This document shows positions 24,008 to 42,674 of a DNA stretch of 64,000 bases, piece after piece; position 1 is the first letter of the stretch; each line of letters begins with the position of its first letter. The notes beneath the pieces are model-generated. The model had not been told where the DNA came from. It saw nothing but the letters and a program-made list of their open reading frames with translations, and ran no database searches. Location: IMG/VR virus record IMGVR_UViG_2974578326_000001, positions 26,711 through 90,710 of that record. One strand, written 5' to 3'. Source of the stretch: a virus (lineage: Duplodnaviria; Heunggongvirae; Uroviricota; Caudoviricetes). The position numbers were made by a program, and so were the translations under genes.

Positions 24008-24454
24008 TTACTTACGTTTGTACTCAACCCAATCACCAGACTCTACAAGAGTAGGTTGCTCTTCATCAATATGGTAGATCCAAGCATCTAATATATCACC
24101 ATTATCTAATTTAATTTCAACAATTGATCGATTGTAGAAATTCTGTGGACTATCTTTCTCATAGAAGCCTTCCAATGCATCATAAGCACCTTCCATTCCA
24201 CTTATAGGTGCTTCAAATACATCAACAACAACTTGTTTATCATTGTCATTATGAACTAAAGACACGCTAGGAAAATAAGAGCTTGCATAAGCATATAAAT
24301 TAAAATTATCTACTGTTCGACCAGTTCCAATATGAACTCCTTCACCTCTTGCATTTACTCGGAAATTTTCCATTCCTAATCGAAGAGATCCATAAGTTGC
24401 GATAAAAGTGTTACCTTCTTTTGGAGCTAGTTTTTTAATATCTTTAGACATCAT
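24008..24454 (-). CDS. gamma-glutamyl cyclotransferase-like (AIG2/GGCT fold) protein
   Basis: FIATYGSLRLGMENF matches the YGSL..G..N signature of the AIG2/GGCT family. Confidence 0.45.
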   Translation of the reverse strand: MMSKDIKKLAPKEGNTFIATYGSLRLGMENFRVNARGEGVHIGTGRTVDNFNLYAYASSYFPSVSLVHNDNDKQVVVDVFEAPISGMEGAYDALEGFYEKDSPQNFYNRSIVEIKLDNGDILDAWIYHIDEEQPTLVESGDWVEYKRK

Positions 24455-26748: not shown

Positions 26749-26811
26749 TTAATATTCCTCTATTTGATATGTTTATAATATAAAATAGCCCCCGTTAGGA
26801 GGCTCGGAAAA

Positions 26812-27951: not shown

Positions 27952-27957
27952 TATTAC

Positions 27958-27988
27958 CTCATAATAAAAGAGGGGAATAAACCCCTCT
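27958..27988 (-). terminator. strong hairpin between nrdA and nrdB (attenuator/terminator)
   Basis: AGAGGGG-AATAAA-CCCCTCT perfect 7-bp stem followed by U-rich tract on minus strand. Confidence 0.45.
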
Positions 27989-27993
27989 ATAAA

Positions 27994-30267: not shown

Positions 30268-30289
30268 TAATAATCTCCCTGATCAATTC

Positions 30290-30472
30290 TTATTTATCTA
30301 ATTTTTCAATCATCATGACTGCAGCTTTTGTAATGAATGCCTTTTTATGGCTTATTCCTTCTTCATCTTTTACATAGAACACAAATCCGCTACCCTCTTC
30401 CGCATAGAAACTCGCTTCAATTTCTATTGGATCTGCATTATTATAGAAACGTGTTATAACATATTTATTCAT
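30290..30472 (-). CDS. hypothetical protein
   Basis: 60-aa ORF. Confidence 0.3.
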   Translation of the reverse strand: MNKYVITRFYNNADPIEIEASFYAEEGSGFVFYVKDEEGISHKKAFITKAAVMMIEKLDK

Positions 30473-30474
30473 TT

Positions 30475-30915
30475 TTATTTAATCTCTTTAGTAATGTATA
30501 AGATTTCAGATGAACGAAAAACTGCAACGAAGTTCTTTTCGTCGTGCCTGTTATCTCCATTATAAAAATGAGTCCAAGTATCATCAGAGATAGATCTCTC
30601 TGCTTTTACTGACACTAGATCACCATTCTTTAAACCTACTTTGTATTTATATGTAATTGGCATATCTTCTCCTAATGGAATATTTATAATATCATTAATT
30701 GCGAAGTCCCTAGTTTTATTTTTATCTAAATCTAGAGCTGTTACAAAATACTGTTCACCTTTGTGATACTCTGTTTCACCTTTCCATATAGATCTTACCT
30801 CTATGTTTCTTAGTGAAGTAATACCTTTCCAGTTTTTATATAATATCTTTAATTTTTTATTAATGAAAGAGTTTAATATTTCTATTTTAACTCTATTATT
30901 CAAAGTGATACTCAT
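30475..30915 (-). CDS. hypothetical protein
   Basis: 146-aa ORF. Confidence 0.4.
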   Translation of the reverse strand: MSITLNNRVKIEILNSFINKKLKILYKNWKGITSLRNIEVRSIWKGETEYHKGEQYFVTALDLDKNKTRDFAINDIINIPLGEDMPITYKYKVGLKNGDLVSVKAERSISDDTWTHFYNGDNRHDEKNFVAVFRSSEILYITKEIK

Positions 30916-31457
30916 AATTCTAAATCCTTTGATAAGTGCTTTACAGCATAAGCTAATGAGGATTCAATTAAGATTTTTGAATTTTGACAACATGTTTCTA
31001 GATTAGAAAGTGTTTTACCCAGAGTAGTAATACTTGATAAATCATTACCTTCTAAGTGGACAATAAATACATACGTTATAGTGGGTACTAAATCTGTATT
31101 TATGACTAACTTTCCAATCAGTTCAGTGTTTCCATTGATCTGTAAAGATTTCATAAGATCTTCTGCTACTTCATAAGGATCTTTTTTGTCTTTTGTTTTT
31201 GAGTGGGAAGAAAGGATAGGGATATCTAATAGTGCATTCTTCCCCTCTTTTATTACAACAAAATTATTTTTTGGATTATCTTGTTGCATTACAGGTATGA
31301 TAGCCACTTGATCTTTTATTAATGCAATATCCTGATCTTTATCAGATGTTCTCACATTTACAAGTTCAATATTTTCTGTTTTTTCAATAACGCTGTATGA
31401 TATCATCTTTTCCTCAAAATGGAATGTCGTCATTAATCCATGCATTACCAAAAGCAT
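30912..31457 (-). CDS. hypothetical protein
   Basis: 181-aa ORF. Confidence 0.4.
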   Translation of the reverse strand: MLLVMHGLMTTFHFEEKMISYSVIEKTENIELVNVRTSDKDQDIALIKDQVAIIPVMQQDNPKNNFVVIKEGKNALLDIPILSSHSKTKDKKDPYEVAEDLMKSLQINGNTELIGKLVINTDLVPTITYVFIVHLEGNDLSSITTLGKTLSNLETCCQNSKILIESSLAYAVKHLSKDLEL

Positions 31458-31695
31458 CTTCTTGCTCTCGTAAATACATCTCTAATAAACGCTTGTTTTG
31501 TTCAGACTCCTGTTTATTTTTATATAAACGTTTCTGAACCTTAATAATGTGTTCAACTGCAGGAGTTACAGTGATTCTTGGAACTTGTCCGTCAAAGGAA
31601 AGCCCCTTAAAAGGGGCAATCAAGTAACAAAATATCGCTGCTTCGCTATTAGTTCTCAGTTGTACATCTTCACCGTTAGTCAGTTTGTAATTCAC
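31414..31695 (-). CDS. hypothetical protein ending in SSB-like tail NDDIPF
   Basis: 93 aa; C-terminus ...AWINDDIPF mimics the bacterial SSB C-terminal peptide. Confidence 0.35.
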   Translation of the reverse strand: MNYKLTNGEDVQLRTNSEAAIFCYLIAPFKGLSFDGQVPRITVTPAVEHIIKVQKRLYKNKQESEQNKRLLEMYLREQEDAFGNAWINDDIPF

Positions 31696-33535
31696 CTAAA
31701 AGATCTCCAACTGTACAATCAGTTAAATCAACAGGGATTTCCCAAGCTACGATTTCAAAGTGTCTTAACTCTGATTTGTAAACACCTACTGAGTTTTCAC
31801 CATTAACAGATAATAAGTAAATTCCGTTGTTAGTTAATCCCGCTGATACTCTTTCTGCTTCTTCTAACTGTCTAGCTATTTCAGCTTCAGCTTCTAATCG
31901 GATACGCTCTTCTTCAGCTTGTTGCCTTTCATACTCAGCTCTAGCCTCTTCAGCGAAGGTTTCAATATTACTCTCAGTAATTCCTACCACTACATCTGAT
32001 ACATAAGCGTAAGTATCAAATACATCTAATAGATGATATACACCACCTCCGTTTATAGAACTAACCTTCATAATAGTTCCAGAATTAGCTAATCTCCTCA
32101 TAGCATTAGTTAATCCTAAACGGATTTGTCTTTCATTTTGACCAAGCGTATGTGGATTAACAAAAACATTGCTACCCACAATTGGTACAGATAAGTCCAA
32201 TACTCCAGAGTCACACACATTTGTCACACTGACTCTGTTCAGATCATGCTCAACACCAGATGTGTGCCAACCTGTTGCTGGTAGTCTAGTAGATGAAATT
32301 CTATGGTTTCTAAGAGGTTTAATAACAATAAACTTATCTCCATTTACTTCATAAACAGAACCAATTCTTAATCCATAGGTATTAATTTGATCTTGTGTAA
32401 ATGTTCTTGGAGTTACAAAGGATTCGACATCATCTCTAGAAACGAAGATTCTATTTAGACTATGTACAGAATCACGTCGGTGGTTATAAACACAAAGAAT
32501 TAATCTTCCGTCTTCATGTACACTCATCACTAAACCAATATTTTGACAAAGTGGTCTTGCATCCATTTCAACAGATACATTTGGTTTTAATCGAACAAAT
32601 CGTCCAGTCCAGTTCTCGTTTGTAAGTGGTAAATCTTCAGGGTTCTCATTACCATTGATCTCATCAACAAGATCTTGCATATCAACAGATATACCCTCTG
32701 GTTCCTCACCATTCTTTACACGAATGATATTGTTACAGAATGTTTCCAGATTTGTTCCTGTCATTCCTGGAGCTGTATTAACTTCTAAGACCCAGCAATT
32801 ATCCATACGTGTAATAACATCAACAGCACCATAATCTAGTCCTAATGCATTTACGGACTGTACTGCTGCGACTTTGGCACTATCAATTACATCAGCGTTT
32901 TGGGTAGCATAAATCCAACCTGTGTGATAGTTTCGTACAACATTGCTGTACTCTTCCATTTCACGATATCCATCACGACGACGTTTTTGTTGTACATAGG
33001 TAACAACACCATTCATCACATGGATTCGGAATTCACGACGTTGTTCTGTCAACCCCTTCGTGTATAAGTTGGCATTAACCAAAGATGTACTTGTTTCAAC
33101 GGAAGATCCGATATCTGATAGTTGTGATAATAAATTTTCATTAGCACATACTACAATACCAGCACCAGAATGTCCTTGCAGTTGTGTTCGTGCATATACA
33201 ACTGAGCCATTATCCATCCATTGTTGTGCTTCCTCACGATCAGTTGTACTTTCAACAATTGGAATATTATTTTCACGAAGAATATTCATTGCTGTCCGTT
33301 TGTTTGAAGCGTTAGAAATAGCTTGTGGATGGTTTAATACTCTTGCACTACCAATTACACTTTCTGGTAAAGAAGAAGAACCATAGTTAACAATCAGATC
33401 TCCTCTGCGTCCTCGGAAAGTCGAACCAGTGGATCGTAATTTAATAATTCGTTGACCATCCATTCCGTTAATTTGTTCACGGATGAGGTTTACTGTATCT
33501 GATGGTGCATGAGAGAAAATTGCTAATCTTGACAT
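31676..33535 (-). CDS. ATP-grasp ligase (RimK/GshB-like) with ~350-aa C-terminal extension incl. Glu/Ala-rich coiled coil
   Basis: ATP-grasp signature DYGAVDVITRMDNCWVLEVNTAPGMTG; extension contains EEARAEYERQQAEEERIRLEAEAEIARQLEEAER. Confidence 0.65.
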   Translation of the reverse strand: MSRLAIFSHAPSDTVNLIREQINGMDGQRIIKLRSTGSTFRGRRGDLIVNYGSSSLPESVIGSARVLNHPQAISNASNKRTAMNILRENNIPIVESTTDREEAQQWMDNGSVVYARTQLQGHSGAGIVVCANENLLSQLSDIGSSVETSTSLVNANLYTKGLTEQRREFRIHVMNGVVTYVQQKRRRDGYREMEEYSNVVRNYHTGWIYATQNADVIDSAKVAAVQSVNALGLDYGAVDVITRMDNCWVLEVNTAPGMTGTNLETFCNNIIRVKNGEEPEGISVDMQDLVDEINGNENPEDLPLTNENWTGRFVRLKPNVSVEMDARPLCQNIGLVMSVHEDGRLILCVYNHRRDSVHSLNRIFVSRDDVESFVTPRTFTQDQINTYGLRIGSVYEVNGDKFIVIKPLRNHRISSTRLPATGWHTSGVEHDLNRVSVTNVCDSGVLDLSVPIVGSNVFVNPHTLGQNERQIRLGLTNAMRRLANSGTIMKVSSINGGGVYHLLDVFDTYAYVSDVVVGITESNIETFAEEARAEYERQQAEEERIRLEAEAEIARQLEEAERVSAGLTNNGIYLLSVNGENSVGVYKSELRHFEIVAWEIPVDLTDCTVGDLLGELQTD

Positions 33536-33536
33536 T

Positions 33537-33770
33537 TTATTTACCTTTAGTTTGAAGTTTTAGTTCGTTTTCTTTTCTTGTTAACCGCATTGTTAACTTG
33601 TTAATACTTTCCTCTAAATTTACATACCTATTCATTGCAGCTTTAAATTCAAGAGGTGTTTTTGCATTTATAATTTCTTTATATACATAGAACTGGGAGA
33701 ATAATCTCCCTTCTAATAAACGTCTTAAAGTATTAACATCTCGTTTCAACAGCTTTTTTTGAGAAACCAT
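33537..33770 (-). CDS. hypothetical coiled-coil protein
   Basis: 77-aa ORF. Confidence 0.35.
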   Translation of the reverse strand: MVSQKKLLKRDVNTLRRLLEGRLFSQFYVYKEIINAKTPLEFKAAMNRYVNLEESINKLTMRLTRKENELKLQTKGK

Positions 33771-33991
33771 TATGGTTTAATACCTTTCATATGACAATAT
33801 TCATTAAGCATCATATAGATACTGACAGGGAATGGAATTATTACATCCTCTCCTTTCTTTTCTTTGTACACCTTAACTTGGTAATCACGTACAGCTCTAA
33901 GAAGATCACTTCCATGATCTGTCATTGGCATCTTACGGACTACAACTGGCTTGTCAAGACGCAACACTTTTGCTTCTTTCATTTCTTCCAT
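33770..33991 (-). CDS. hypothetical protein
   Basis: 73-aa ORF. Confidence 0.35.
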   Translation of the reverse strand: MEEMKEAKVLRLDKPVVVRKMPMTDHGSDLLRAVRDYQVKVYKEKKGEDVIIPFPVSIYMMLNEYCHMKGIKP

Positions 33992-33992
33992 T

Positions 33993-35756
33993 TTAAACTA
34001 CTCCTTGACAATTTGGGCAAATTGGTTTCTGTCCCTGAAATGCTGTTAGTGGTGCTTCACTCCAAGGGATTCGATGGAAACAAGAACTACATTCGTTCAT
34101 CTTTTCCCAATTACTTTTAGAAACTTTGAAACCATTTCTAAGGGTTTTACGAAAAGCTGTGTCACCACCTGTTTGGCTTGACTTGAAGACTTTTTCACAT
34201 TCTTTACAGCATGAGGCATCTGTTGTTGACATTTCTGATGGATCGAATTCTTTTGCGCAAAATCGACATACTTCTTTTTCGACCACCTTACTATCAATAT
34301 GAGTACCCATCACTTCAGTGTAGCATTCTTCACAACAAAAAGCAACATCGTGAACAATAACAACATCTGGTATGTCTTCAAAATCAATTGGTGAACTACA
34401 GTTAGCACAAGTTTGCATATCACCCTTACGAATCCATTGCTGTTCTGTGAAGGTTTCACCCGTCACAGTAGTAAGCTCTTGTGTAGGAGTATCATCCATT
34501 GGATCACTAATGATTTCTTCAACAGTATCGTCAACATATTCCGGAATTTTTTTTATTTTTTTATTAAAATCAAAAAGAACCGCCGCTGTATCCATACGGA
34601 TTACATCATTAGGATTTTTTAAATCTTTAACCAATAAATGAACACAGTAATTCATGTAATATGCTGAAGTAATTTCTGCCGAGTATGATTTCTCTTTCTC
34701 GACTTCTTCTGGTCGAATACCGTGGCACTGAACTTCGATGTATTCTTCTCCATCATTAATCCAACCAATAAGCTGTGCTCTGTCAGAATTTCTTCCATAT
34801 GGTCGAATATCTAATGCTTCAAAGATAATACGATCACCTATCTTCTTATTTGGAAGAACTGATTTGATGATCCCATTAACACCGGAATGTGGGTCTTTTG
34901 AATCTACTTTGTTCGGAAAAGATTTTTTACTATAGTTGCCATAGTTATAAAGGTTGTCATCATCGTAATTACGGTTCCAGTACGAGTATTTGGGAAAGGT
35001 AGGAAGCGTATGCTTCTTTTCCTCCTTTAATGTCATGTTAGTGGCATCAAAGATATACTGAACACCTACTTCACATTCAAAGTGGCGTTTTACTGTTGGA
35101 GAATACTTCTTACGATTTAGAATCCACATCAACATTTCTTCTTCAGAAGCACCATACCATTCACCAGTGTTAGTTTCTGCTAAATGAAAAGGTCGTTCTT
35201 CATTTCGTAAAATGTTTAATGTTTTTTCATTATCATCAAACCAAACTAGAGTGAAGGCACCATCTAGTTTCTGAACTGTTTCATCAATTCCAATTTTTGC
35301 AATAGAATGACAGATGTTTTCACTATCAACCTCAAAGTCTTTACTATCAGGTAATAGTCCTTGATCAATTAAAGTACCATTATGTACCAATGTGATATGT
35401 CCATGTGTGAACGGATGGGCATTCTTAGCATTAATTGCACCTTGAGTTGCATAACGGTTATGGCCAACCATAATACTTGGTCTTACTGTTGATTTAGTAT
35501 AGGCTTTACCTGTTGAAATAGGTGTATACTCCTCTCTCTCACTTACTTCTTTGAATAGTGGAGATCTAGAGAACTGATCACCAGGAATTGCTTCCTTAGC
35601 CCATATTAAATCTAAATCTTTTCCATCTTTAAAGACAGAGTAAACTCCTGTTGAGTGCTCCCCTCGGAATGTATCACAGAATAGTAACTTCTGGAAAATT
35701 CCAACTTCATTAACAGTTAAGGTAGTTTTTGTTCCAGCTAGCACAATACCACACAT
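33993..35756 (-). CDS. class-II (Ntn) glutamine amidotransferase-like protein with C-terminal multi-zinc-ribbon region
   Basis: MCGIV nucleophile start (GlmS/PurF-like), HNRYATQG..NAHPF..LVHNGTL motifs; last ~170 aa carry >=5 CxxC pairs. Confidence 0.7.
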   Translation of the reverse strand: MCGIVLAGTKTTLTVNEVGIFQKLLFCDTFRGEHSTGVYSVFKDGKDLDLIWAKEAIPGDQFSRSPLFKEVSEREEYTPISTGKAYTKSTVRPSIMVGHNRYATQGAINAKNAHPFTHGHITLVHNGTLIDQGLLPDSKDFEVDSENICHSIAKIGIDETVQKLDGAFTLVWFDDNEKTLNILRNEERPFHLAETNTGEWYGASEEEMLMWILNRKKYSPTVKRHFECEVGVQYIFDATNMTLKEEKKHTLPTFPKYSYWNRNYDDDNLYNYGNYSKKSFPNKVDSKDPHSGVNGIIKSVLPNKKIGDRIIFEALDIRPYGRNSDRAQLIGWINDGEEYIEVQCHGIRPEEVEKEKSYSAEITSAYYMNYCVHLLVKDLKNPNDVIRMDTAAVLFDFNKKIKKIPEYVDDTVEEIISDPMDDTPTQELTTVTGETFTEQQWIRKGDMQTCANCSSPIDFEDIPDVVIVHDVAFCCEECYTEVMGTHIDSKVVEKEVCRFCAKEFDPSEMSTTDASCCKECEKVFKSSQTGGDTAFRKTLRNGFKVSKSNWEKMNECSSCFHRIPWSEAPLTAFQGQKPICPNCQGVV

Positions 35757-35824
35757 ATTTAATAATCCTTGTTTTACATTTAATTTTAAACACAATTTAA
35801 CCCCTATTTCTAGGGGTATCTACT

Positions 35825-37399
35825 TTAAAGAGTACGTCGCCAGTTTAGATATTCTTGTAGAACTTCTGGATCTCTGAAGAACCAACCAGGTTCAAACGTT
35901 GAATCTAATGAATTCATAATGGTCTGAATTTTATTTACCCAAGAGAATGTTGGTAATAAAGGTTTACTATCGGGTAATCGATATTCAGTTCTTGATGAAA
36001 TCGAATTTCTTGTGTGTTCCCAACCTGCTGTATGATAAGAACCTCTGGTCATATTATATGTTCTATCACCCTGAATTTGTGTCTCTTCTGGGATAAGAGT
36101 TGTGATAGTCCTACGTCGGATTTTACTACGAGATAGAATATCATTACATAGTTTATAACCAATACTTAGGTCTTTAGAGAAATCTGGGCACTTTTTAGGT
36201 AAGCCTTTTCTAATTACTTTCTCAATAGGTGTACTATTAAGCATTTCTAAAAACTCTTCATCGGTTCCTTCAAAATTCTTTGCAATTTCTTTTAATGACA
36301 AGAATCTATTTACTAATCGAATTAGTTTCCCTTTACGCCACTTAGCTTCAGAGATTCGAAACTCAATAGATCCAAATGAAGTCATTGGACAAAGATTCAT
36401 TGCTGTGTACTTGTTCCAGTTAACAACTACATGAGATAAAAAGTTTTCTTTATTCCAACTATCTGATAAAACATCAATATATTCCTGAGCGAACCCTAAA
36501 GCTACGCAGAAATTATTACGATATCGATGGAACCCAGAGCAACGGAACAGTGGTCGTTCATAGAATAAATAAGCAAGAATCATTTTCTTGACTTCTTCTT
36601 CTGTCATATCACGGACATCAACATGAACATGTGTTGAGCATCTCCATGTTTCATCTGGTGCATTATTGAAGAGAAATGAATCAATCTCAATTGCTGCATT
36701 ATATAAATCTCGACCTCCCCAAGGAGATGAGCACACATATTCTATACCACCGTTACGAAGTGAACCATCTTCTTTTGAAGACCAATATTGGAATCTTGGA
36801 TGAGATACTTCTCCTAGATTTTCTAGTTCAATCTCTACACCCGCTAAATTAGTACCTACAATCAAAGGATGACTTTCAATTGTTGGATAACTAGCTCTCA
36901 TTCCAAAAGTGCTAGCAACTGTTGGCATTGTTATAACCTCTGTGTTTCCTGAAATTGGTTGATTTGGGATTGTTCTACTTCTTCTTGGTATATTAAAACC
37001 AAAAAGACCACTTTGATAATTTCCTGATTGTGTTGGTTCAGGTTCTTCTATTTCTTGATCTTCAGGTGATCCATACAAATAATCATCATCAATAATCTCA
37101 TCTTGTGGTTCTTCCACTGGAACTTCAATATCGATGGAATCTTCGTCAGACTGAGTACGAATCTCTTCGACAGGTTGTGTTGTCATTCTTCCAACGAATT
37201 CATTCCAGTCTACTAGGCTTGGAGAAGCATAGATCATAGACGAGATATCATTATCAGTTGTTTGTTCATTATGAGTAACATTTCTTTGTCTAGAATCAAC
37301 TTCTCTTCGACTATAAAATGGTGTTGAACTTCTGACTGATCTTGTCTGTGTTGATGAGTTATTGTTAGACCACCTTAATCCTCTATAATTACCTGGCAT
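35825..37399 (-). CDS. glutamine-synthetase/GCS2-like amidoligase (COOH-NH2 ligase) with disordered acidic N-terminal region
   Basis: GVEIELE ... DGSL..GGIEYV ... CSTHVHVDV pattern of carboxylate-amine ligase (YbdK/Amidoligase_2-like). Confidence 0.45.
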   Translation of the reverse strand: MPGNYRGLRWSNNNSSTQTRSVRSSTPFYSRREVDSRQRNVTHNEQTTDNDISSMIYASPSLVDWNEFVGRMTTQPVEEIRTQSDEDSIDIEVPVEEPQDEIIDDDYLYGSPEDQEIEEPEPTQSGNYQSGLFGFNIPRRSRTIPNQPISGNTEVITMPTVASTFGMRASYPTIESHPLIVGTNLAGVEIELENLGEVSHPRFQYWSSKEDGSLRNGGIEYVCSSPWGGRDLYNAAIEIDSFLFNNAPDETWRCSTHVHVDVRDMTEEEVKKMILAYLFYERPLFRCSGFHRYRNNFCVALGFAQEYIDVLSDSWNKENFLSHVVVNWNKYTAMNLCPMTSFGSIEFRISEAKWRKGKLIRLVNRFLSLKEIAKNFEGTDEEFLEMLNSTPIEKVIRKGLPKKCPDFSKDLSIGYKLCNDILSRSKIRRRTITTLIPEETQIQGDRTYNMTRGSYHTAGWEHTRNSISSRTEYRLPDSKPLLPTFSWVNKIQTIMNSLDSTFEPGWFFRDPEVLQEYLNWRRTL

Positions 37400-37974
37400 T
37401 CTGGGAATCCTTCATTTAGATAAGGGATAAGATATTTTGCTTCACTGAAGATTGTAATGGTTTCACCATCTTTTGTACCAATCTTTGCTCCCTTGTAATC
37501 AATATCACCATTATCACGTTTAAAGAACACCTCATTAATGATTCTATCATCTGTCTGAGGTTGATAAAAAGCATACATAAATCGATGACTAAAAGTAGGA
37601 TAACCTCTTAATTTACGATCATTAATACCTTTCTTAGTTGATCGACATGAAGAATAAGTAATCCAGTATGGGTTGTTATTATACACAGTATAATGTGAAT
37701 CAGGTGGATCAAGAACAAGGTTCTCAGAAGTCATTGGTACTTGTGTAGAATGCTGTCTTCCATCTGAAGTGATTCTATATCCAGTGAAAACTAAAGCGTT
37801 CTCAGCTTCCACACTAAACTCCATATCACGTCGTTCAGATCTTGACATGTTATCAAAATCAAGAATGGAATCATCATTATAGACACTTTCAACATAAAAG
37901 GGGACTAGCCCCTCATCTGTTTTTAGTCCGACATATGTTCCACTATAATACATATTGAAATCATCGGCTAACAT
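37375..37974 (-). CDS. hypothetical protein
   Basis: 199-aa ORF inside the ligase cluster. Confidence 0.4.
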   Translation of the reverse strand: MLADDFNMYYSGTYVGLKTDEGLVPFYVESVYNDDSILDFDNMSRSERRDMEFSVEAENALVFTGYRITSDGRQHSTQVPMTSENLVLDPPDSHYTVYNNNPYWITYSSCRSTKKGINDRKLRGYPTFSHRFMYAFYQPQTDDRIINEVFFKRDNGDIDYKGAKIGTKDGETITIFSEAKYLIPYLNEGFPECQVIIED

Positions 37975-37977
37975 ATT

Positions 37978-38784
37978 TTACATTACCTTTAATAATTTAA
38001 TCAATGCTTCTGCTGAACGTTTGTCATTATCATTGATAACACGCTGGATTTCTTTTGGATCAACTTTTGCTACCAGTTCTTTAAAAGAACCTTCTTTCAG
38101 AGCACCAAAAGCCTTATGTGCTTGATCCCAAGCCCATCGACGATTATCTTCCTTAGCAATCCAGAAATTAGACAATGTACGATACTCAATACCATATGTC
38201 TTATAACGACAAGCACCAGCTTTACCATACAACTCACGACGACGATCATCATTATCTAATAATAATGATGGAACACCCAAGAAGAAGTCACACATAACAC
38301 CAAGAATACTTTGATTCATCTGTGTTACATCTAATTCACCCTCAAAGCCAATATGGATATGACCACCAGCTGTTCGAAGACCAGGATCAGCTGCTTTAGG
38401 TTTTGGATTACGTGCCCCTGTTAATGCATTATAATCAGGTTCACATCCAAAGATAAATGCGCTTTTGTGGAAACTCGTTAGTTCTGCTCTAGAGAAAATA
38501 TGAGAGCTTACACCCTCTGCGATTGACATTCCAATCTTATTAGCCTCAGTGTAACATGCAGAAATACCACGAGCCATATTATCATTGAAACCTTCCCACG
38601 TTTCATGTGGGTTGATATCATATTCAATTAGCACGTTATCTTCCTGAATACGCACATCGTCAGACAAATGTTTTTTCTCTTCTTTGCTAGCTCCAAGACG
38701 ACCAGCAAAAGATCCAATTAAACCTGTTTTAATATCAAAACCTAGTAATTCTGGATCTGAACCAATAGTTAATTTAAAGCTCAT
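37978..38784 (-). CDS. second GCS2-like carboxylate-amine ligase (amidoligase)
   Basis: N-terminal TIGSDPEL (G.E.E-like strand) and GGHIHIG (GxHxHxG) as in YbdK-type ligases. Confidence 0.45.
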   Translation of the reverse strand: MSFKLTIGSDPELLGFDIKTGLIGSFAGRLGASKEEKKHLSDDVRIQEDNVLIEYDINPHETWEGFNDNMARGISACYTEANKIGMSIAEGVSSHIFSRAELTSFHKSAFIFGCEPDYNALTGARNPKPKAADPGLRTAGGHIHIGFEGELDVTQMNQSILGVMCDFFLGVPSLLLDNDDRRRELYGKAGACRYKTYGIEYRTLSNFWIAKEDNRRWAWDQAHKAFGALKEGSFKELVAKVDPKEIQRVINDNDKRSAEALIKLLKVM

Positions 38785-38797
38785 TTTATTTTACCTT

Positions 38798-39730
38798 TTA
38801 AGCAAATGGGTTAATATTATTTTCTACAAGAAATGATTCCATTTCAACAACTAATCGAGGTATTTTGAAACCTCTATGATCAACAATTTCTATTTCAACA
38901 GTTCCATCACGTCTATGATCACCCCTTCTAGATGGGTTATCTAAGAAATGTGTGTCCCTTTCAACACTAAGGCAGTCTATTAATTTCCTACCCCTTCCAT
39001 TGAATCTTGATAATGATCCACTAAACCCATCATCTCTTTTGTAATATCCCTGATCTTTCCATTCTTCTTGAACGAATGCATCATCAGTGAAATCACCAGA
39101 TAATAGCCTAATCAAAGATTGTTTACCAAATGATAAGGGACTAATCCAGTTTGTTTCTCCCACCCACTGGACTGAATATGAGTTAGAGAAAGCACCTACA
39201 TTGCTAAACAGTAGATGTGCTACAACAGCTGAGAAAGAGGGTCTATATCCCCAATTAATCATGTCATTGTACATCCTTGACATAGTTCCGCATGTTGTTA
39301 AGTTACGAGCCAAGAATAAACCTGTTATAATTTTATCAGCCTTATTATTTTTGATATGAGCTCGAACTACTTTCAGAATAGGGTGAACTGATATACAACC
39401 TTGATAGATTTTTAAATCATCAAAAATAGCTTTTAGATGTTTAATTAAATTCTTTTCAGCTTTTTCTTTTTTGGATAGGAATGTAATATCATCCGCTGAC
39501 AGGAAATCAAACCCACCTAAGTTGTTTTCCCAATTACTAATATTTGATATATTATCCCCTATTGAGAATTCAATGAAAGAATGTAGGTTTTTATTATCCT
39601 TCCCAATTAAGATTTCTTGATGTCTTCGATCTCTAACTCCACCCCATCCAGAAGATGCCATTTTACCAAAACAAGGTGCATTAGAAACTTTTCCTTTTAC
39701 TCCATTCTTAAGTGCTATGCTATACTCCAT
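38798..39730 (-). CDS. hypothetical protein
   Basis: 310-aa ORF. Confidence 0.4.
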   Translation of the reverse strand: MEYSIALKNGVKGKVSNAPCFGKMASSGWGGVRDRRHQEILIGKDNKNLHSFIEFSIGDNISNISNWENNLGGFDFLSADDITFLSKKEKAEKNLIKHLKAIFDDLKIYQGCISVHPILKVVRAHIKNNKADKIITGLFLARNLTTCGTMSRMYNDMINWGYRPSFSAVVAHLLFSNVGAFSNSYSVQWVGETNWISPLSFGKQSLIRLLSGDFTDDAFVQEEWKDQGYYKRDDGFSGSLSRFNGRGRKLIDCLSVERDTHFLDNPSRRGDHRRDGTVEIEIVDHRGFKIPRLVVEMESFLVENNINPFA

Positions 39731-40659
39731 TTTTTATACTCCTTATAAATGTTTTTAGCTAAATCGAGGAAAATATCAATAGTAATTTGTTTTGATGATA
39801 TTTCATCTGGTATTAATAATTCCCCATTTTTCTCATCACTTAAAAAAGTATGAGTTAAAGTGAAATTTTCCTTGTTACGATCGAACAGGTCAGTATATTC
39901 TCTGTCGTAGTAACCAAACCTTCCGTAACCATTTTCCGTATCACCCCAATTGCCTTGGTAGATTTGTTTAAAATCACCAGTACACATGTTTTTGAAATCT
40001 TCTAATGTGGCTTCATAGTGCGGCAAAATAGTAGAATCATAGTCAACAATATTTACATATGTTTCCCCAGAGTAATCTTTACACATATAAAACATCTGAG
40101 ATAACATAAAAGAGAAATGCCAATCAAAACCTTTATTGATAAGCAGGTTGAATACAAATCCTATATCATAATCATTGAGGATGTTTCGAATCATCATAGC
40201 TGGCAACAATGTTTTCTGCATGTTTAAGCCTTTAGTTTTTATTTTAAAACCATTGACTTCCATCATTACACTTTCATTATCTATGTGACACTCTTCTTCT
40301 TCATATTCTGGTACAATAAAGGTTCCAAACTCTATATGGTCAAACATCCCATTGTTCATTGGATTCTCTAGAACTTCACTGATTAATTTATCTAAGAATT
40401 TCTTTTGATCCATATCACCACGTATCTGTTTTACAATATATAAATCTGATGAAAACCTGTCACTTGGGTAATATATTACATGATCGAGATTATCTGAAAA
40501 TATGTTATCTAATGAAACATCTTCCCAATCTTCATTTTCAACAACACAATCTAATTCAGACAACATACCAAAGCATGGTACATCTTCTCGGAACATCCAC
40601 CCGTTATCACCTACTAATGTTAGATACATCTTAATCCTCTGTCTCTTCACCAATACCAC
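39715..40659 (-). CDS. hypothetical protein
   Basis: 314-aa ORF. Confidence 0.4.
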   Translation of the reverse strand: MVLVKRQRIKMYLTLVGDNGWMFREDVPCFGMLSELDCVVENEDWEDVSLDNIFSDNLDHVIYYPSDRFSSDLYIVKQIRGDMDQKKFLDKLISEVLENPMNNGMFDHIEFGTFIVPEYEEEECHIDNESVMMEVNGFKIKTKGLNMQKTLLPAMMIRNILNDYDIGFVFNLLINKGFDWHFSFMLSQMFYMCKDYSGETYVNIVDYDSTILPHYEATLEDFKNMCTGDFKQIYQGNWGDTENGYGRFGYYDREYTDLFDRNKENFTLTHTFLSDEKNGELLIPDEISSKQITIDIFLDLAKNIYKEYKKWSIA

Positions 40660-40900
40660 GTAGCTGACTTACATACACTTGTTTACCATCTTTTCCAGTA
40701 ACAGTGCATTGCCCAGTTAAAACTCGGAAAGTTGTATCTCGGCTTAGGTCATATTGAGCTAGAACACAATCTTTAAACTGTATTCCTCTGAAGTAACCGA
40801 GAATAATAACAAATACCAAAAAGATAAGAAGCGCTAAATAACGCTTCTTGAAGTATTTATTTGATAATTGATTATATTTGTCTTTAATAATATTAATCAT
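40631..40900 (-). CDS. small single-pass membrane protein
   Basis: 89 aa, one TM helix (LALLIFLVFVIILGYF). Confidence 0.4.
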   Translation of the reverse strand: MINIIKDKYNQLSNKYFKKRYLALLIFLVFVIILGYFRGIQFKDCVLAQYDLSRDTTFRVLTGQCTVTGKDGKQVYVSQLRGIGEETED

Positions 40901-41289
40901 TTTTGTTCAGCCTTTAATTCTTCAAACATTTTATCTAAATTGCGGACATGTTCTTCGGTGTCGTTAATAAAATGTTTAATTTGAGCTTGTCGGAATTTAA
41001 TTTCACCTAAAGCTAATAGCGATTCAGCATAAGAGTCAGCAAACATTCGACGTGAAAATTCTAACGCACGGTTGCAACCCTTTCCTTTGTTGTCAATTTG
41101 GTTTTGTCGAATCTGCTTTTTGATGTCAGTTAATACCGATGAAAGTTGGATTCGAACAATACGAGCTGCTGCCATTTCACGATTAGTATTCTTTAAATCT
41201 TTTCGAGCTTGGTCTAAATTAGCACCAATTGCTTTTAAAGAAAATTCAACAGAAGATAACTTAGTTGTTTTAGCAGTTGCTTTAGTCAT
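40897..41289 (-). CDS. hypothetical coiled-coil protein
   Basis: 130-aa ORF. Confidence 0.4.
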   Translation of the reverse strand: MTKATAKTTKLSSVEFSLKAIGANLDQARKDLKNTNREMAAARIVRIQLSSVLTDIKKQIRQNQIDNKGKGCNRALEFSRRMFADSYAESLLALGEIKFRQAQIKHFINDTEEHVRNLDKMFEELKAEQK

Positions 41290-41350
41290 GATTAAATACC
41301 TTTTAATAAACGATTAATTAAGTGAGTTTCTTTTAAGAAGTTTACAAATA

Positions 41351-41560
41351 TTATTTAGAAGAAATAATCTCTTCACCAGTGATAGCTTTTACTGCTGTAA
41401 GTGCTTTTTCTGCACTTGACTGTTCTTGTTTCATTGTCTTTAATTCTTTTTCAGCAGTTGTGATATTCTCTTTATTTTCAGATAAAAACAAAACAAGATC
41501 ATCACGAACTTTTGTGAATGAAGAAAGGATAGAAGATAGTGATTTTTTAGATGAGAACAT
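41351..41560 (-). CDS. hypothetical coiled-coil protein
   Basis: 69-aa ORF. Confidence 0.35.
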   Translation of the reverse strand: MFSSKKSLSSILSSFTKVRDDLVLFLSENKENITTAEKELKTMKQEQSSAEKALTAVKAITGEEIISSK

Positions 41561-41571
41561 TTTAATACCTC

Positions 41572-41994
41572 TTATTTAATAAAATAGTGATCTTTGTATT
41601 TATGAATATCTTTTCCTTGTGCCCAGTATGGTTTACTATTCCCACTGTAAAAGAATTTATATTCGTACTTTGGTTTATACCCAGGTTTTAGAGTCATTAG
41701 TGCAACTCTTCCTGCCGTTTGGAAGTTTTCTAGCTCACCGTAGTGCTTCAATCTTCCTTTCTCAAGAGTTTTATAATACTCCAAGAATCCTTTCTCATCT
41801 CTGGTCTTTAATACAGTTGACCATGAAAACTGATTCTTTTGAAGTAGTACACCCATTACATTATCTGGGAATCTAGGATCTTCAACCCTATTGTGAACTA
41901 CATCAGCTACTCTGTGCATTCCATCAAACCCTTGATTTCCTGCTTCCATGTAGGTGTTCATTGTTAATGCTAACCAGCATACTAAGAATTTCAA
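41572..41994 (-). CDS. SleB-like cell-wall hydrolase (Hydrolase_2) with signal peptide
   Basis: N-terminal signal sequence; EAGNQGFDGMHRVADVVHNRVEDPRFPDNV..QFSW matches SleB domain. Confidence 0.6.
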   Translation of the reverse strand: MKFLVCWLALTMNTYMEAGNQGFDGMHRVADVVHNRVEDPRFPDNVMGVLLQKNQFSWSTVLKTRDEKGFLEYYKTLEKGRLKHYGELENFQTAGRVALMTLKPGYKPKYEYKFFYSGNSKPYWAQGKDIHKYKDHYFIK

Positions 41995-42054
41995 AACATA
42001 TAACTCCTTTTAATTAATATCACAAGAAGCCTAATAGACTTCTTAGGTTATTAA

Positions 42055-42393
42055 CTAATATCTACGGAGTATTATATCAACACCATATTTATTCTTAAAT
42101 GAATCTTTAGCAGAGTACATATTTGTAACTGCTGAAGAATTATGTGAGTGTATGTAAATTGTTTTAAGTCTGATTAATACATCTCTATGAAGAAGTTCTT
42201 CAATTATGTACAATGCATCCTTTCCCTCAAAACCTTCTATACCTAAATCATTATCTAGTGAAACTGTAACTATTTCTTTAGAATGGTTATGTATGCAATT
42301 GAAAAAAGATTTTCTATCATTCGCCCAGTATGTTTTACCTGTGCATAACACATACTCAGGTGGTTTTCTGATATCATCAAGCCAAAGAAACAT
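42055..42393 (-). CDS. cyclic-phosphate processing receiver (CPR) domain protein
   Basis: MFLWLDDIRKPP ... VSLDNDLG ... IHSHN pattern of CPR family found with RNA-repair genes. Confidence 0.55.
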   Translation of the reverse strand: MFLWLDDIRKPPEYVLCTGKTYWANDRKSFFNCIHNHSKEIVTVSLDNDLGIEGFEGKDALYIIEELLHRDVLIRLKTIYIHSHNSSAVTNMYSAKDSFKNKYGVDIILRRY

Positions 42394-42448
42394 AAATCCT
42401 CCAGTAAATTTAAGATAAGGTACACACTAGGTATACCTTAGATTTAAA

Positions 42449-42664
42449 TCAACTAACAATTTTATACTTAGTGTTTCTTGTTTTAAGTATCAAATCACCA
42501 TCTTCATCAGTTGTTAATGATTCAACTCTTGATGTAAGAACAGGGGTTCCATCCTTGAATGGATGATTCCCGTGTGTTGATGTATCATTCTTAATGAATC
42601 CAGACACAACCCTTTCTTCAATAAAGAATGTTTCGATTTTTAATTCAGCATCATACTTACTCAT
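42449..42664 (-). CDS. hypothetical protein
   Basis: 71-aa ORF. Confidence 0.35.
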   Translation of the reverse strand: MSKYDAELKIETFFIEERVVSGFIKNDTSTHGNHPFKDGTPVLTSRVESLTTDEDGDLILKTRNTKYKIVS

Positions 42665-42674
42665 AAGTACCTAC

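Follow-up and report, generated by a model that had tools for sequence, protein, structure and literature searches.

Cassettes of the kind described here are already known from comparative genomics work of 2009-2013 and have been described for the phages phiEco32, LUZ24, RIO-1, PA11 and CW02, either as an operon devoted to gamma-glutamyl amide bonds or to unusual peptide bonds, or as a 'peptidoglycan modification cassette'. The initial annotation of the locus studied here appealed to comparative genomics for a prediction of gamma-glutamyl-type peptide or metabolite chemistry; this holds up, and three papers reach the same general reading as we do (PMC4819975, PMC5498523, PMC6256558). In phage PSA-HP1, expression of the homologous cassette starts right after infection (PMC7082346). 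Just as the initial annotation held that no product had been demonstrated, we found no experimentally determined product in the literature searched.

The window, i.e. the whole 64,000-nt stretch of DNA that was analysed, belongs to Proteus phage Privateer (100% identity). Positions 31676-40659 are filled by nine densely arranged minus-strand genes, and all of the annotated ORFs are present at their coordinates (Table 1). The Privateer gene order recurs in phiEco32, UFV-P2, LAh_9 and Vp_R1, and a related order is found in Zobellviridae, PA11-like, Rhizobium and crAss-like phages. The genes had been described as co-transcribed, which is plausible: neighbours overlap or lie 1-13 nt apart, with a single 68-nt gap containing a hairpin as the exception, and the terminator scan detected no minus-strand terminator-like site in the gaps of the array, all those detected lying within coding sequence. 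The hairpin itself is reported by the scan on the plus strand only and has a poor T-tail. Promoter-like sites are not enriched (79 observed versus 89 expected). None of the module proteins has a transmembrane segment.

Table 1. Features of the Privateer cassette, with positions in the window
Feature	Position	Strand	Basis or remarks
gp075, GGACT/AIG2, gamma-glutamylamine cyclotransferase-like	24008..24454	-	PF06094, E=9.6e-14
gp086, RimK-family ATP-grasp ligase	31676..33535	-	core at about residues 1-265 plus C-terminal extension of about 350 aa
gp087, predicted helical protein, 77 aa, lineage-specific	33537..33770	-	no family match
gp088, DUF7195 small protein, 73 aa	33770..33991	-	PF23825, E=3.8e-37
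gp089, stand-alone Ntn (class II) glutamine amidotransferase-like	33993..35756	-	GATase_6, phrog_4736
GC-rich hairpin ACCCCTAGAAATAGGGGT (coding strand)	35800..35817	.	sole sizeable gap, between Amidoligase_2 and amidotransferase
gp090, Amidoligase_2, GS-like carboxylate-amine ligase, core at about residues 150-430	35825..37399	-	phrog_38711, phrog_7469
gp091, 199 aa, beta-rich fifth core component	37375..37974	-	SH3/Tudor/BAH-like barrels
gp092, phiEco32-type COOH-NH2 ligase type 2, glutamine-synthetase/GCS2-like fold	37978..38784	-	PF14395, phrog_3815
gp093, 310 aa, second uc1 paralogue	38798..39730	-	profile, hhalign
gp094 (CPT_Privateer_094), about 304 aa, divergent uc1 member	39715..40629	-	family profile match

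Pfam, PHROG and NCBIfam profile searches agree with the assignment of the four amide-bond enzymes to their named families, the Pfam match of Amidoligase_2 being weak. The catalytic residues whose absence had been named beforehand as refuting the assignment (Cys1 of the amidotransferase, the ATP-grasp triad and the GS-like ligands) are conserved in the family alignments. The ATP-grasp ligase gp086 matches PF08443 (E=3.6e-8, residues 76-263), phrog_2599 (E=5e-113) and the NCBIfam models for MptN (E=8e-15) and the RimK family (E=1e-14), both well under the family cut-offs. RimK structures 5zct and 4iwx align with its residues 43-264, and K79, E168/R170, K184 and the metal triad D239/E251/N253 are conserved among 82 sequences. 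Its C-terminal extension is lineage-specific, being absent from most homologues (alignment occupancy <0.25), and the long coiled coil predicted earlier corresponds to a helix within this extension, rich in E, R and A and highly charged, at about residues 527-565.

The amidotransferase-like gp089 matches GATase_6 (E=2e-15) and phrog_4736 (E=4e-142) and aligns to the glutaminase domain of GlmS. Its likely start is the ATG at 35756, which lies 9 nt downstream of an AGGA and exposes Cys1, as proposed earlier from the MCGIV sequence; it is favoured over the GenBank start, TTG at 35795. In 66 of 83 homologues the N-terminus is MCG plus I, L or V, and the GHNR.AT, NAHPF, HNG and VDS motifs are kept across the 83. 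The amidotransferase domain (residues 1-230) is followed by a poorly conserved middle domain (about 300-380) and by the Cys-rich tail already recognised in the initial annotation, which on direct reading of the sequence consists of three lineage-specific CxxC...(C)CxxC zinc ribbons (residues 450-583, MCGIV numbering). Beyond about residue 215 no position except P252 and G331 is conserved at ≥70% among the 83 homologues, and their alignment revealed no conserved synthase domain.

The GS-like motifs described for the two remaining ligases are likewise borne out. In gp090 (phrog_38711, E=7e-144; phrog_7469 'amidoligase', E=8e-84; PF12224, E=1e-3, with 19.3 bits falling short of the cut-off of 22), 88 aligned sequences conserve G-x-E-x-E-x-E (187-193), DGSLR, RxSxHxH (R253/H257/H259) and EFR, and the N-terminal 150 or so residues are acidic, of low complexity and lineage-specific (occupancy <0.15). 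In gp092 (PF14395, E=1.7e-8; phrog_3815, E=1e-103), D10, E12, Q47, D49, E54, H142, H144, R182, R193, E200 and R202 are invariant in 11 diverse sequences.

The three small ORFs lying among the enzymes had been set down as uncharacterised. This description fits gp087, which has no match in Pfam, PHROG or NCBIfam and for which a search of 91 loci turned up no homologue beyond the window itself. It does not fit gp091, which is near-universal: it is present in 42 of the 46 loci with full flanks, and in 70 of 80 loci its stop overlaps the start of Amidoligase_2. No catalytic family was detected in gp091, which is probably an adaptor translationally coupled to Amidoligase_2. The third, gp088, occurs in 20 of 91 loci, only in phiEco32-, LUZ24- and Lahexavirus-type cassettes, and in the five mapped loci it is flanked by the amidotransferase and ATP-grasp genes. 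Its R19, P22, P53 and P55 are invariant, its C-terminus is unconserved, and the PDB sequence search found no relatives.

The two ORFs at 38798-40659 had been included by proximity only. Both proved to belong to one uncharacterised family, labelled uc1 here, which includes phiEco32 gp87/gp88, is fast-evolving and usually recurs directly upstream of the COOH-NH2 ligase. A profile built without gp093 matches that protein at E=4e-10 (hhalign probability 80%). For gp094, a profile of 99 uc1 members excluding it matches at E=1.4e-16, comparison with the uc1 profile gives E=1e-5 (hhalign probability 70%), and the BLASTP match to gp093 is weak (E=0.014). It matches phrog_24882 and no Pfam family, and it probably starts at 40629, as in GenBank, rather than at GTG 40659. 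The family comprises 2081 clusters at 50% identity (E≤1e-3); Pfam searches gave a single marginal match (1/99 members, E=0.009) and PDB sequence searches nothing significant (best E=0.32). In gp093, Cys20 and Arg142 are invariant and S81, E146, H193 and Y236 nearly so; the protein could be an enzyme, and its AlphaFold2 model has a pLDDT of 49.

The AIG2/GGCT-like gp075, suggested as a partner at a distance, is a displaced accessory member of the cassette. Its homologues lie 0-2 genes past the ATP-grasp in UFV-P2, phiEco32, LUZ24-like phages and Vp_R1, whereas in Privateer inserted genes totalling about 7 kb, nrdAB among them, have moved it away, its ancestral position directly upstream of the primase/helicase gene being kept. 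GGACT is present in 27 of the 46 full-flank loci. Peptidase C26 forms a near-complementary alternative to it: 24 loci have GGACT only, 17 C26 only, three both and two neither (Fisher p=9e-8); after clustering into lineages at 70% identity the corresponding counts are 11, 16, three and two, with few independent lineages underlying the pattern (14 clusters at 50% identity). The clustering of the ATP-grasp, the amidotransferase, Amidoligase_2 and the COOH-NH2 ligase far exceeds chance, since all 46 full-flank loci carry all four.

GS/GCS2-fold ligases form gamma-glutamyl amides (GshA, PuuA/PauA, EgtA), RimK-family enzymes (RimK, CofF, MptN, LysX) ligate L-Glu or aminoadipate, and a ligase is paired with a gamma-glutamyl remover in EgtA/EgtC, PuuA/PuuD and BtrJ/BtrG. 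GGACT acts on free gamma-glutamyl-alkylamines. By analogy, we consider it somewhat better than an even bet (probability about 0.55) that the Privateer cassette encodes an early pathway of the cytoplasm by which gamma-glutamyl-type amide bonds are formed on an amine and trimmed. Its six-part core comprises the two GS-fold ligases, the RimK-type ATP-grasp, the Ntn amidotransferase-like enzyme, gp091, one gamma-glutamyl-amine cleaver (GGACT/AIG2 in Privateer, or peptidase C26) and, in the Privateer lineage, the uc1 paralogues gp093 and gp094. All of these would act in the cytoplasm soon after infection. One GS-fold ligase would phosphorylate the gamma-carboxylate of glutamate, or a similar carboxylate, and couple it to an alkylamine-type acceptor; the other, together with the ATP-grasp, would extend the product with amide-linked residues, that added by the ATP-grasp being most likely an L-Glu-like amino acid. 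The amidotransferase-like enzyme would then give glutamine-derived ammonia to the acyl-phosphate of a partner ligase, or hydrolyse a gamma-glutamyl amide as EgtC does, and GGACT or C26 would take the gamma-glutamyl group off the amine. The net result would be a short gamma-glutamyl-linked amide or peptide, built and trimmed on a small amine-bearing molecule such as a metabolite, a polyamine or a peptidoglycan-precursor-like peptide. Scores for the ATP-grasp and the amidotransferase fall far under the equivalog cut-offs, and therefore the substrate specificity of the characterised enzymes is not transferable. The amidotransferase may in fact serve to donate ammonia; 'trimming' would then be the wrong word for its role.

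A small molecule is not the only conceivable acceptor: the adaptor, the zinc ribbons, the long extensions and the fast-evolving gp093/gp094 suit a macromolecular target at least as well. It is possible, though rather unlikely, that the ligases and the amidotransferase add residues to or amidate the stem peptide of UDP-MurNAc-peptide, lipid II or recycled muropeptides. Cell wall biochemistry offers precedents in the ATP-grasp D-Asp ligase Aslfm, the class II amidotransferases AsnB1/LtsA, which amidate mDAP, and MurT/GatD. All cassette proteins appear cytoplasmic, which is the site of precursor synthesis; wherever hosts of cultured carriers have been identified, they are Gram-negative; and gp091 is SH3-like in fold, SH3-like domains being common binders of peptidoglycan peptides. 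In Privateer, a gene three positions upstream encodes a SleB-like cell-wall hydrolase, but in other phages it is unlinked, at varying distances in five loci. Moreover, the cassette lacks a Mur-ligase, Fem or lipid-II-binding domain and any membrane or periplasmic component, and the benefit would be doubtful because little new wall is made in a short lytic cycle. The idea has been put forward as a hypothesis in papers citing Iyer 2009 and Hardies 2013.

We regard the modification of a host or phage protein with glutamate, other residues or a gamma-glutamyl-linked tag, on side chains or the C-terminus, as quite unlikely. The models here would be RimK acting on S6, the tubulin glutamylases and PafA, with targets recognised by gp091, the zinc ribbons and gp093/gp094. 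RimK structures are the nearest solved relatives of the ATP-grasp, PafA/Dop share the GS-like fold, the adaptor-like gp091, together with the long extensions and the zinc-ribbon tail, points to the binding of a macromolecule, and fast evolution is expected of host-contacting components such as gp093/gp094 might be. However, free gamma-glutamyl amines are the substrates of GGACT and C26 enzymes, which are not known to act on protein-bound isopeptides, the small cassette proteins lack the conserved acidic or Gln/Glu C-terminus that marks a Pup- or LysW-like tag or carrier, and three distinct ligases with trimming enzymes would seem to resemble stepwise biosynthesis more. A weak lead comes from Privateer virions, in which both capsid bands run above their calculated mass, a shift that according to the authors may be an artefact (PMC7881722). 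Very improbable is a modification of phage DNA bases or tRNA with amide or amino-acid groups that would shield them from restriction or anticodon nucleases. The initial annotation also named a modified nucleotide as an option, but nothing in the window speaks for it: the annotation of the window contains no base-hydroxymethylase, 5-HMUDK, aGPT-Pplase, DpdA, 7-deazaguanine or base-flipping transferase genes. Zinc ribbons are capable of binding nucleic acids, as are Tudor/Sm-like barrels, and in most mapped loci the cassette lies among replication and nucleotide-metabolism genes (primase/helicase, DNA polymerase, ribonucleotide reductase; UDG in crAss-like phages), but this linkage is accounted for by the genome backbone common to these podoviruses. 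To our knowledge, the thymidine and deazaguanine hypermodification pathways described so far use no GS-fold or ATP-grasp ligases.

The cassette is essentially phage-restricted and early-expressed, and is found almost only in lytic podoviruses: phiEco32-like, LUZ24-like, Zobellviridae/RIO-1-like, PA11-like and some crAss-like ones. A gp092 homologue is present in 309 phage records. Only 48 COOH-NH2 ligase loci were found in 185,579 species genomes, nearly all of them on MAG contigs, many of which, at 43-54 kb, are as long as a phage genome. To the earlier descriptions we add this virtual absence of the COOH-NH2 ligase from bacterial genomes, the 46/46 co-occurrence of the four enzymes, gp091 as a near-universal fifth core protein, gp093/gp094 as divergent paralogues of a large family, the near-complementarity of GGACT and peptidase C26, and the corrected start of the amidotransferase. 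Were peptidoglycan precursors the true acceptors, the phage would alter the wall of its host, for example so that superinfecting phages are excluded or lysis is tuned.

The 8984-base stretch with the cassette matches Proteus phage Privateer (MT028297 / NC_048861, record positions 58386-67369) at 100% identity. The window as a whole corresponds to record positions 26711-90710 of this phage, a prolate, phiEco32-related podovirus of the Grimontviridae with a 90.7-kb genome, whose relatives at 84-96% nucleotide identity have Proteus and Cronobacter as hosts. Since the minus strand carries all annotated genes of the window except one small ORF at the right end, transcription is expected to run from right to left, i.e. 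from the early genes through the cassette to the replication genes. The nine genes of the array, gp086 to gp094, overlap or are separated by 1-13 nt, the single exception being a 68-nt gap between the Amidoligase_2 and amidotransferase genes; this gap, the only sizeable one, contains a GC-rich, perfect 7-bp hairpin (ACCCCTAGAAATAGGGGT, 35800-35817) that could act as an element for RNA processing, stability or attenuation. The genes are tightly packed, the terminator scan placed zero minus-strand terminator-like sites in the gaps between them, and no enrichment of promoter-like sites was seen; co-transcription of the cassette, as predicted from the layout, is therefore plausible. Over positions 23500-43000 there are 20 terminator-like hairpins against 7.5 expected, many of them intragenic. 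The start of gp094 is probably at 40629 and not at 40659. Since a predicted membrane span is absent from every module protein, the chemistry of the cassette is probably cytoplasmic.

Coordinates of the cassette enzymes and of the other features discussed in the text (window positions, or positions on the individual locus where one is named)
Feature	Record	Coordinates	Strand	Remarks
RimK-like ATP-grasp (gp086)	window	31676-33535	minus	profile matches
Class II glutamine amidotransferase (gp089)	window	33993-35756	minus	profile matches
Amidoligase_2 (gp090)	window	35825-37399	minus	profile matches
phiEco32-type COOH-NH2 ligase (gp092)	window	37978-38784	minus	profile matches
GGACT/AIG2 (gp075)	window	24008-24454	minus	E=9.6e-14
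PnuC-like	window	4502-5125		
Nucleoside 2-deoxyribosyltransferase	window	5139-5699		
ADP-ribose-phosphate phosphatase-like	window	12910-13386		
RtcB-like RNA ligase	window	44905-45906		
tRNA genes	window	~47149-47982		several
Ter-family (tellurite-resistance) protein	window	48205-48861		
NAMPT	window	48871-50520		
Ribose-phosphate pyrophosphokinase	window	50793-51593		
Polynucleotide kinase	window	52232-52729		
Ter-family protein	window	53619-54203		TerD-like
Ter-family protein	window	54671-55585		TerC-like
Amidoligase_2 with extra N-terminus	L004	12275-13732		
Amidoligase_2 with extra N-terminus	L080	12694-14466		
Amidoligase_2 with extra N-terminus	L058	9543-11342		

The initial annotation had seen in this array a RimK-like ATP-grasp, a class II amidotransferase and two GS/GCS2-like ligases, and Pfam, PHROG and NCBIfam profiles bear out all four families. 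The active-site motifs of the cassette enzymes are intact: the amidotransferase Cys1, the ATP-grasp triad and the GS-like ligands are all present in the alignments. The COOH-NH2 ligase type 2 matches PF14395 (E=1.7e-8; its 34.5 bits exceed the cut-off of 25) and is 50% identical to phiEco32 gp86; among 11 diverse sequences 25 positions are invariant, and the conserved residues include the acidic pairs D10/E12 and D49/E54, H142/H144 and R182/R193/R202. With 19.3 bits the Amidoligase_2 gene stays under the Pfam cut-off of 22, and PHROG 'amidoligase' profiles match it at E=8e-84 to 7e-144. Its GS-type motifs G-x-E-x-E-x-E, DGSLR, R-x-S-x-H-x-H and EFR are kept across 88 homologues, with E189/E191/E193, H257/H259 and EFR 346-348 as the ligand-type residues. 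Both ligases thus carry the alternating Glu metal-ligand strand, the H-x-H and the phosphate-binding Arg that are hallmarks of GS/GCS2-like enzymes.

The ATP-grasp core can be aligned with RimK crystal structures, including the Asp/Glu/Asn metal triad, and gp086 has the ATP- and Mg-binding residues of the fold, which are conserved across 82 homologues. Its best NCBIfam matches are MptN and the RimK family; the score of 54.5 bits against TIGR00768 (cut-off 143) and 26 bits against PRK10446 (cut-off 331) falls short of the curated RimK-family cut-offs (54 bits versus 143-350 bits). The PHROG label 'ribosomal protein S6 glutaminyl transferase' on this protein is an annotation transfer and not functional evidence. 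The segment described earlier as a long coiled coil proves to be a charged helix; it belongs to a C-terminal extension missing from most homologues.

The GenBank CDS of the amidotransferase opens at TTG 35795 (MCLKLNVKQGLLNMCGIV...). We prefer ATG 35756, because AGGA lies 9 nt upstream of it, an Ntn nucleophile needs Cys1 and the resulting MCGIV N-terminus is shared by homologues, 66 of 83 of which have an MCG(I/L)V-type N-terminus (position 4 being I, L or V), which makes the deposited start probably incorrect. Class II motifs hold the Arg/Asp that binds the alpha-carboxylate/alpha-amino group of glutamine, plus an Asn-Gly oxyanion hole. In gp089 Cys1 and the GHNR.AT, NAHPF, HNG and VDS motifs are conserved (83 homologues): R101, N126-G127 and D143 sit in GHNR.AT, HNG and VDS, respectively, and the GHNR.AT, NAHPF and HNG regions align to GlmS. 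The protein thereby has Cys1, the glutamine-binding Arg/Asp and the Asn-Gly oxyanion hole of a class II enzyme. Beyond approximately residue 215, just P252 and G331 reach 70% conservation, and after approximately residue 230 neither a Pfam domain nor a cluster of conserved residues was found across the 83 homologues, so that a conserved synthase (acceptor) domain like those of GlmS, PurF, AsnB or GltB is lacking. In its predicted architecture gp089 resembles the stand-alone amidohydrolases of the EgtC/YafJ type; the NCBIfam EgtC match reaches only E=3e-3. The Cys-rich tail noted earlier does consist of zinc ribbons, three in number.

We compared gene content across 91 loci, i.e. 10 annotated phage loci, 80 IMG/VR loci and the window, linking ORFs to the Privateer proteins by iterative profile searches (jackhmmer). 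Besides the COOH-NH2 ligase, present in 91/91 loci, counterparts of the other three enzymes each occur in 83-89 of the 91 arrays (Amidoligase_2 and the class II amidotransferase in 89, the ATP-grasp in 83), and all four are found together in 46/46 of the full-flank loci, meaning those with 6 kb or more before the ligase and 7 kb or more after it. Genes are usually arranged as [C26]-X-COOH-NH2 ligase-gp091-Amidoligase_2-amidotransferase-ATP-grasp-[GGACT], followed by primase/helicase and DNA polymerase; the order is permuted in crAss-like phages. Examined for informative fusions, the longest variants of each enzyme showed no extra Pfam domains, and recurrent neighbour clusters are replication and nucleotide-metabolism genes or unknowns.

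Three ORFs among the enzymes had been set down as uncharacterised. One of them, gp091, is a fifth core component of the cassette: its family is present in 81/91 loci and in 42 of the 46 full-flank loci. The gp091 stop overlaps the Amidoligase_2 start in 70/80 loci (by 25 nt in Privateer), which suggests coupled translation and a complex of the two proteins. For gp091, the searches turned up neither a Pfam family nor a related PDB sequence. Its AlphaFold2 model (119 homologues, pLDDT 76) is mostly beta, and a Foldseek search of the model against viral models returned uncharacterised proteins only, the named matches being from Vp_R1, CW02, RIO-1, an uncultured Caudovirales phage and Escherichia phage myPSH1131; we read gp091 as a putative non-catalytic adaptor. 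Two crAss-like loci (L004 and L080) and a third locus, L058, lack a separate gp091 gene, and their Amidoligase_2 has an extra, beta-rich N-terminus of ~230 aa that could be a fused functional equivalent of gp091; a Rosetta-stone check detected no sequence similarity between gp091 and the extension in the crAss-like proteins. The second ORF, gp088 (DUF7195), is limited to phages of the phiEco32, LUZ24 and Lahexavirus types (20/91 loci). A ribbon-helix-helix-like assignment of DUF7195, suggested by a sequence pattern, was dropped, as PDB sequences lend it no support. The third, gp087, has no homologue in the other fetched loci (91 loci including the window).

The two flanking ORFs, gp093 and gp094, had been included in the cassette for their proximity only, a view that does not stand: both match an uncharacterised family, uc1, that recurs next to the ligase. 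The two proteins are weakly similar to each other, and the family profile matches gp093 at E=4e-10 (hhalign probability 80%) and gp094 at E=1e-5 (70%). An independent profile built without gp094 matches gp094 at E=1.4e-16, and 19 of the 26 members found with this profile end no more than 200 nt from the ligase start. The family includes phiEco32 gp87 and gp88, Aeromonas phage LAh_9 gp56 and gp57, and a 442-aa CVT22 protein; ORF19 and ORF20 of the LUZ24 type could not be linked to it (hhalign probability <5%). While a single-sequence search with gp093 finds 3 proteins and an alignment query 24, mostly of the CVT22 type, the exhaustive uc1 search yields 2081 clusters at 50% identity. Among 99 members one had a marginal Pfam match (E=0.009), and there was no significant match to PDB sequences; the AlphaFold2 model of gp093, made on a shallow alignment, has a pLDDT of 48.8. 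One Cys and one Arg are invariant in uc1, and a Ser, a Glu, a His and a Tyr nearly so, a pattern that hints at an enzyme.

Using the COOH-NH2 ligase as the tblastn query, we found 309 phage records, with hosts including Pseudomonas, Escherichia, Vibrio, Aeromonas, Salmonella, Cronobacter, Klebsiella, Citrobacter and Rhizobium, as well as crAss-like phages; at least 577 IMG/VR stretches match the ligase. Homologous genes of Pseudoalteromonas phage PSA-HP1 are 'expressed immediately' upon infection (PMC7082346). A scan of Bacteria and Archaea, with one genome for each of 185,579 species, gave 48 loci with the ligase, nearly all on MAG contigs, the longer of which are often 43-54 kb (phage-genome-sized) and the rest mostly short fragments. 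That the loci are so few and phage-like argues that the cassette is a feature of lytic phages and not a borrowed host operon. Ligase fragments 59-70% identical to that of Privateer occur on three tiny scaffolds (0.5-1.1 kb; L092, L094 and L095) of the actinobacterial isolate Herbiconiux daphne CPCC 203386, most likely reflecting contamination of the assembly by a phiEco32-like enterobacterial phage and not a bacterial gene.

The cassette shares its COOH-NH2 ligase type 2, Amidoligase_2, class II amidotransferase, ATP-grasp, AIG2/GGACT, DUF7195 and gp091 family with the phiEco32/LUZ24/phiRIO-1 operon, and gene order and the position upstream of primase/helicase agree with phiEco32 (gp88 to gp77) and the LUZ24-like UFV-P2 (ORF19 to ORF29). 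For Privateer and phiEco32 alike the order reads uc1-uc1-COOH-NH2 ligase-gp091-Amidoligase_2-amidotransferase-DUF7195-x-ATP-grasp ... GGACT-x-primase/helicase. The AIG2/GGCT-like protein proposed as a candidate partner fits into this scheme: its homologues lie 0-2 genes past the ATP-grasp in phiEco32 and UFV-P2, whereas in Privateer ~7 kb including nrdA and nrdB is inserted, so that GGACT is found ~7.2 kb downstream of the ATP-grasp, not adjacent to it, yet in its usual place just upstream of primase/helicase. Privateer further differs in that its ATP-grasp has 619 aa (250-400 aa elsewhere), its Amidoligase_2 has an acidic N-terminal extension of ~150 aa, gp087 is present and peptidase C26 is absent. 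The extended ATP-grasp, zinc-ribbon tail, acidic N-terminus of Amidoligase_2, uc1 paralogues and displaced GGACT are lineage-specific elaborations.

Gamma-glutamyl-amine bonds are split by GGACT, through cyclisation to 5-oxoproline, and by C26/PuuD, through hydrolysis. The Privateer GGACT is one such accessory enzyme; GGACT is present in 48/91 loci and a peptidase C26 / class I amidotransferase-like protein in 43-45. Among the 46 full-flank loci, 24 have GGACT only, 17 C26 only, 3 both and 2 neither (Fisher p=9e-8, with kinship ignored); collapsed to 32 lineages at 70% identity, of which few are independent, the counts are 11, 16, 3 and 2. This exchange of two unrelated enzymes that cleave the same type of bond is the best available clue that the pathway may pass through a gamma-glutamyl-amine intermediate.

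Ligases of the GS/GCS2 fold, such as GshA, PuuA/PauA and EgtA, join an amine to a carboxylate that they have activated, in most cases the gamma-carboxylate of glutamate. The substrate added by RimK-family ATP-grasp enzymes (RimK, CofF, MptN, LysX) is L-glutamate or aminoadipate, and EgtC shows that a class II amidotransferase-like enzyme standing alone can work as a gamma-glutamyl amidase. The metabolism of ergothioneine (EgtA/EgtC), polyamines (PuuA/PuuD) and butirosin (BtrJ/BtrG) makes use of a gamma-glutamyl amine as a temporary handle. By analogy with these systems, we put at roughly 55% the probability that the cassette encodes a stepwise cytoplasmic pathway: a ligase would place a gamma-glutamyl amide on an alkylamine-type acceptor, the other two ligases would lengthen it, and the amidotransferase and GGACT would trim or amidate the product. 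For the acceptor, we favour a small molecule or a precursor peptide over a protein. As in EgtA/EgtC, PuuA/PuuD, PauA/PauD and BtrJ/BtrG, a ligase installing the gamma-glutamyl amide would be paired with a remover, and all three types of remover known from gamma-glutamylation pathways (class II amidotransferase-like, peptidase C26 and GGCT-fold) occur across the phage cassette variants. Unlike those pathways, the cassette has three ligases and lacks an oxidase, PLP enzyme, methyltransferase or carrier protein, and no phage protein attains the equivalog score for any of these enzymes. Glutathione and glutathionylspermidine metabolism, with GshA as a GS-fold ligase, GshB and Gss as ATP-grasp ligases and ChaC/GGCT for degradation, combines the same folds on gamma-glutamyl amides, but GshA, GshB and Gss show no significant similarity to the phage proteins, which include an additional ligase and an amidotransferase. 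The phage ATP-grasp aligns with RimK over its core and keeps the ATP/Mg-binding residues, but it has a large extra C-terminal region and lacks the RimK tetramerisation context and a RimA/RimB partner.

Modification of peptidoglycan precursors, the hypothesis put forward in the literature, overlaps with the stepwise pathway, a precursor peptide being one candidate acceptor there. It would fit a SleB-like cell-wall hydrolase (41572-41994, PF07486, E=3.7e-14) whose gene stands with the early genes, three positions upstream of the cassette, but this linkage is not conserved in other phages. We consider the hypothesis unlikely. Glutamylation or tagging of a protein would be in keeping with gp091 as an adaptor-like protein, with the zinc ribbons and long extensions and with the fast evolution of gp093/gp094, and both Privateer capsid bands migrate above their calculated mass, for which the authors allow an artefact (PMC7881722). 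Against tagging, none of the small cassette proteins looks like a tag or carrier that ends in conserved acidic residues or Gln/Glu: DUF7195, gp087, gp091 and the other cassette families have no Pup- or LysW-like C-termini, and the neighbouring proteins with acidic tails are SSB-like or small unrelated ones. On balance protein tagging seems rather improbable.

Modification of nucleic acid is very improbable, since the annotation of the 64-kb window, checked at that level, holds none of the genes that define known hypermodification pathways (base-hydroxymethylase, hmdU kinase/aGPT-Pplase, FolE/QueCDE/DpdA); the nucleotide genes present are Dam, dCTP deaminase, ribonucleotide reductases and a dNMP kinase only. 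We also entertain, as a speculation with low odds, a counter-defence or takeover pathway that would gamma-glutamylate a near-universal bacterial alkylamine, for which putrescine, spermidine, cadaverine or a lysine- or mDAP-containing signal or precursor may serve as examples; the conjugate would then be elaborated into a novel gamma-glutamyl-amide metabolite, with GGACT or C26 returning the amine, and gp093/gp094 would be a new enzyme class. The ten cassette proteins have no match in PADLOC-DB at E<=0.01.

Several neighbouring genes deserve mention in their own right. Directly upstream of gp094, gp095 (40631-40900, 89 aa) is predicted with confidence to span the membrane once (Kyte-Doolittle 2.58); it is the sole membrane protein next to the cassette and has homologues in 3/91 loci. 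Privateer, LAh_9 and UFV-P2 all encode an SPFH/band-7 protein upstream of the cassette (42675-43613 in the window). Three proteins of the tellurite-resistance (Ter) family are encoded in the early region of Privateer. Genes for NAD+ salvage and ADP-ribose-related functions form a further set in Privateer, and in LAh_9 the amidoligase cassette is followed immediately by the genes for PRPP synthetase and NAMPT (L006 17018-20156); by analogy with other phages, this set could serve NAD+ reconstitution as a counter-defence. RtcB and polynucleotide kinase, an RNA-repair pair, share the early arm with several tRNA genes, which suggests a defence against anticodon nucleases of the host; in LAh_9 a gene for RNA ligase 2 precedes the cassette. 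Privateer virions contain a Dps-family protein (window 19507-19971), and the virion mass spectrometry data are public (MassIVE 10.25345/C5DZ18; PMC7881722).

The cassette was reportedly recognised by comparative genomics in 2009 (Iyer et al., Mol Biosyst), and the operon is named 'gamma-glutamyl amide / unusual peptide bond' or 'peptidoglycan modification cassette' (Iyer et al. 2009 and Hardies et al. 2013, J Virol, as quoted in later papers; Duhaime et al. 2017, PMC5498523). The paper on Sinorhizobium phage PhiM6 calls it a module for peptide-bond synthesis (PMC6256558), and the Privateer genome paper mentions just the amidotransferase (PMC7881722). The initial annotation, which invoked such predictions and noted that no product had been demonstrated, agrees with this literature: our search, which covers subscription journals sparsely so that absence is not proof, returned no experimental product, target or phenotype. 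To the earlier picture we add a fifth core protein coupled to Amidoligase_2, the complementarity of GGACT and C26, a corrected Cys1 start and a defined minimal core.

The cassette is among the most widespread multi-enzyme modules of lytic podoviruses, and its carriers include LUZ24-like and phiEco32-like phages used in therapy cocktails. Finding its product would tell whether the target is the host wall or a protein, or whether the outcome is a metabolite peculiar to phages, and would assign functions to two prediction-only Pfam families as well as to the large, unannotated gp091-like and gp093/gp094-like families. Should the speculative alkylamine pathway prove true, lytic podoviruses in culture by the hundreds, among them Pseudomonas and E. 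coli phages used in therapy, would share a phage-only metabolite pathway of a new kind, in which the gp093/gp094 family, with its more than 2000 sequence clusters and invariant Cys and Arg, would perform a step without known counterpart.
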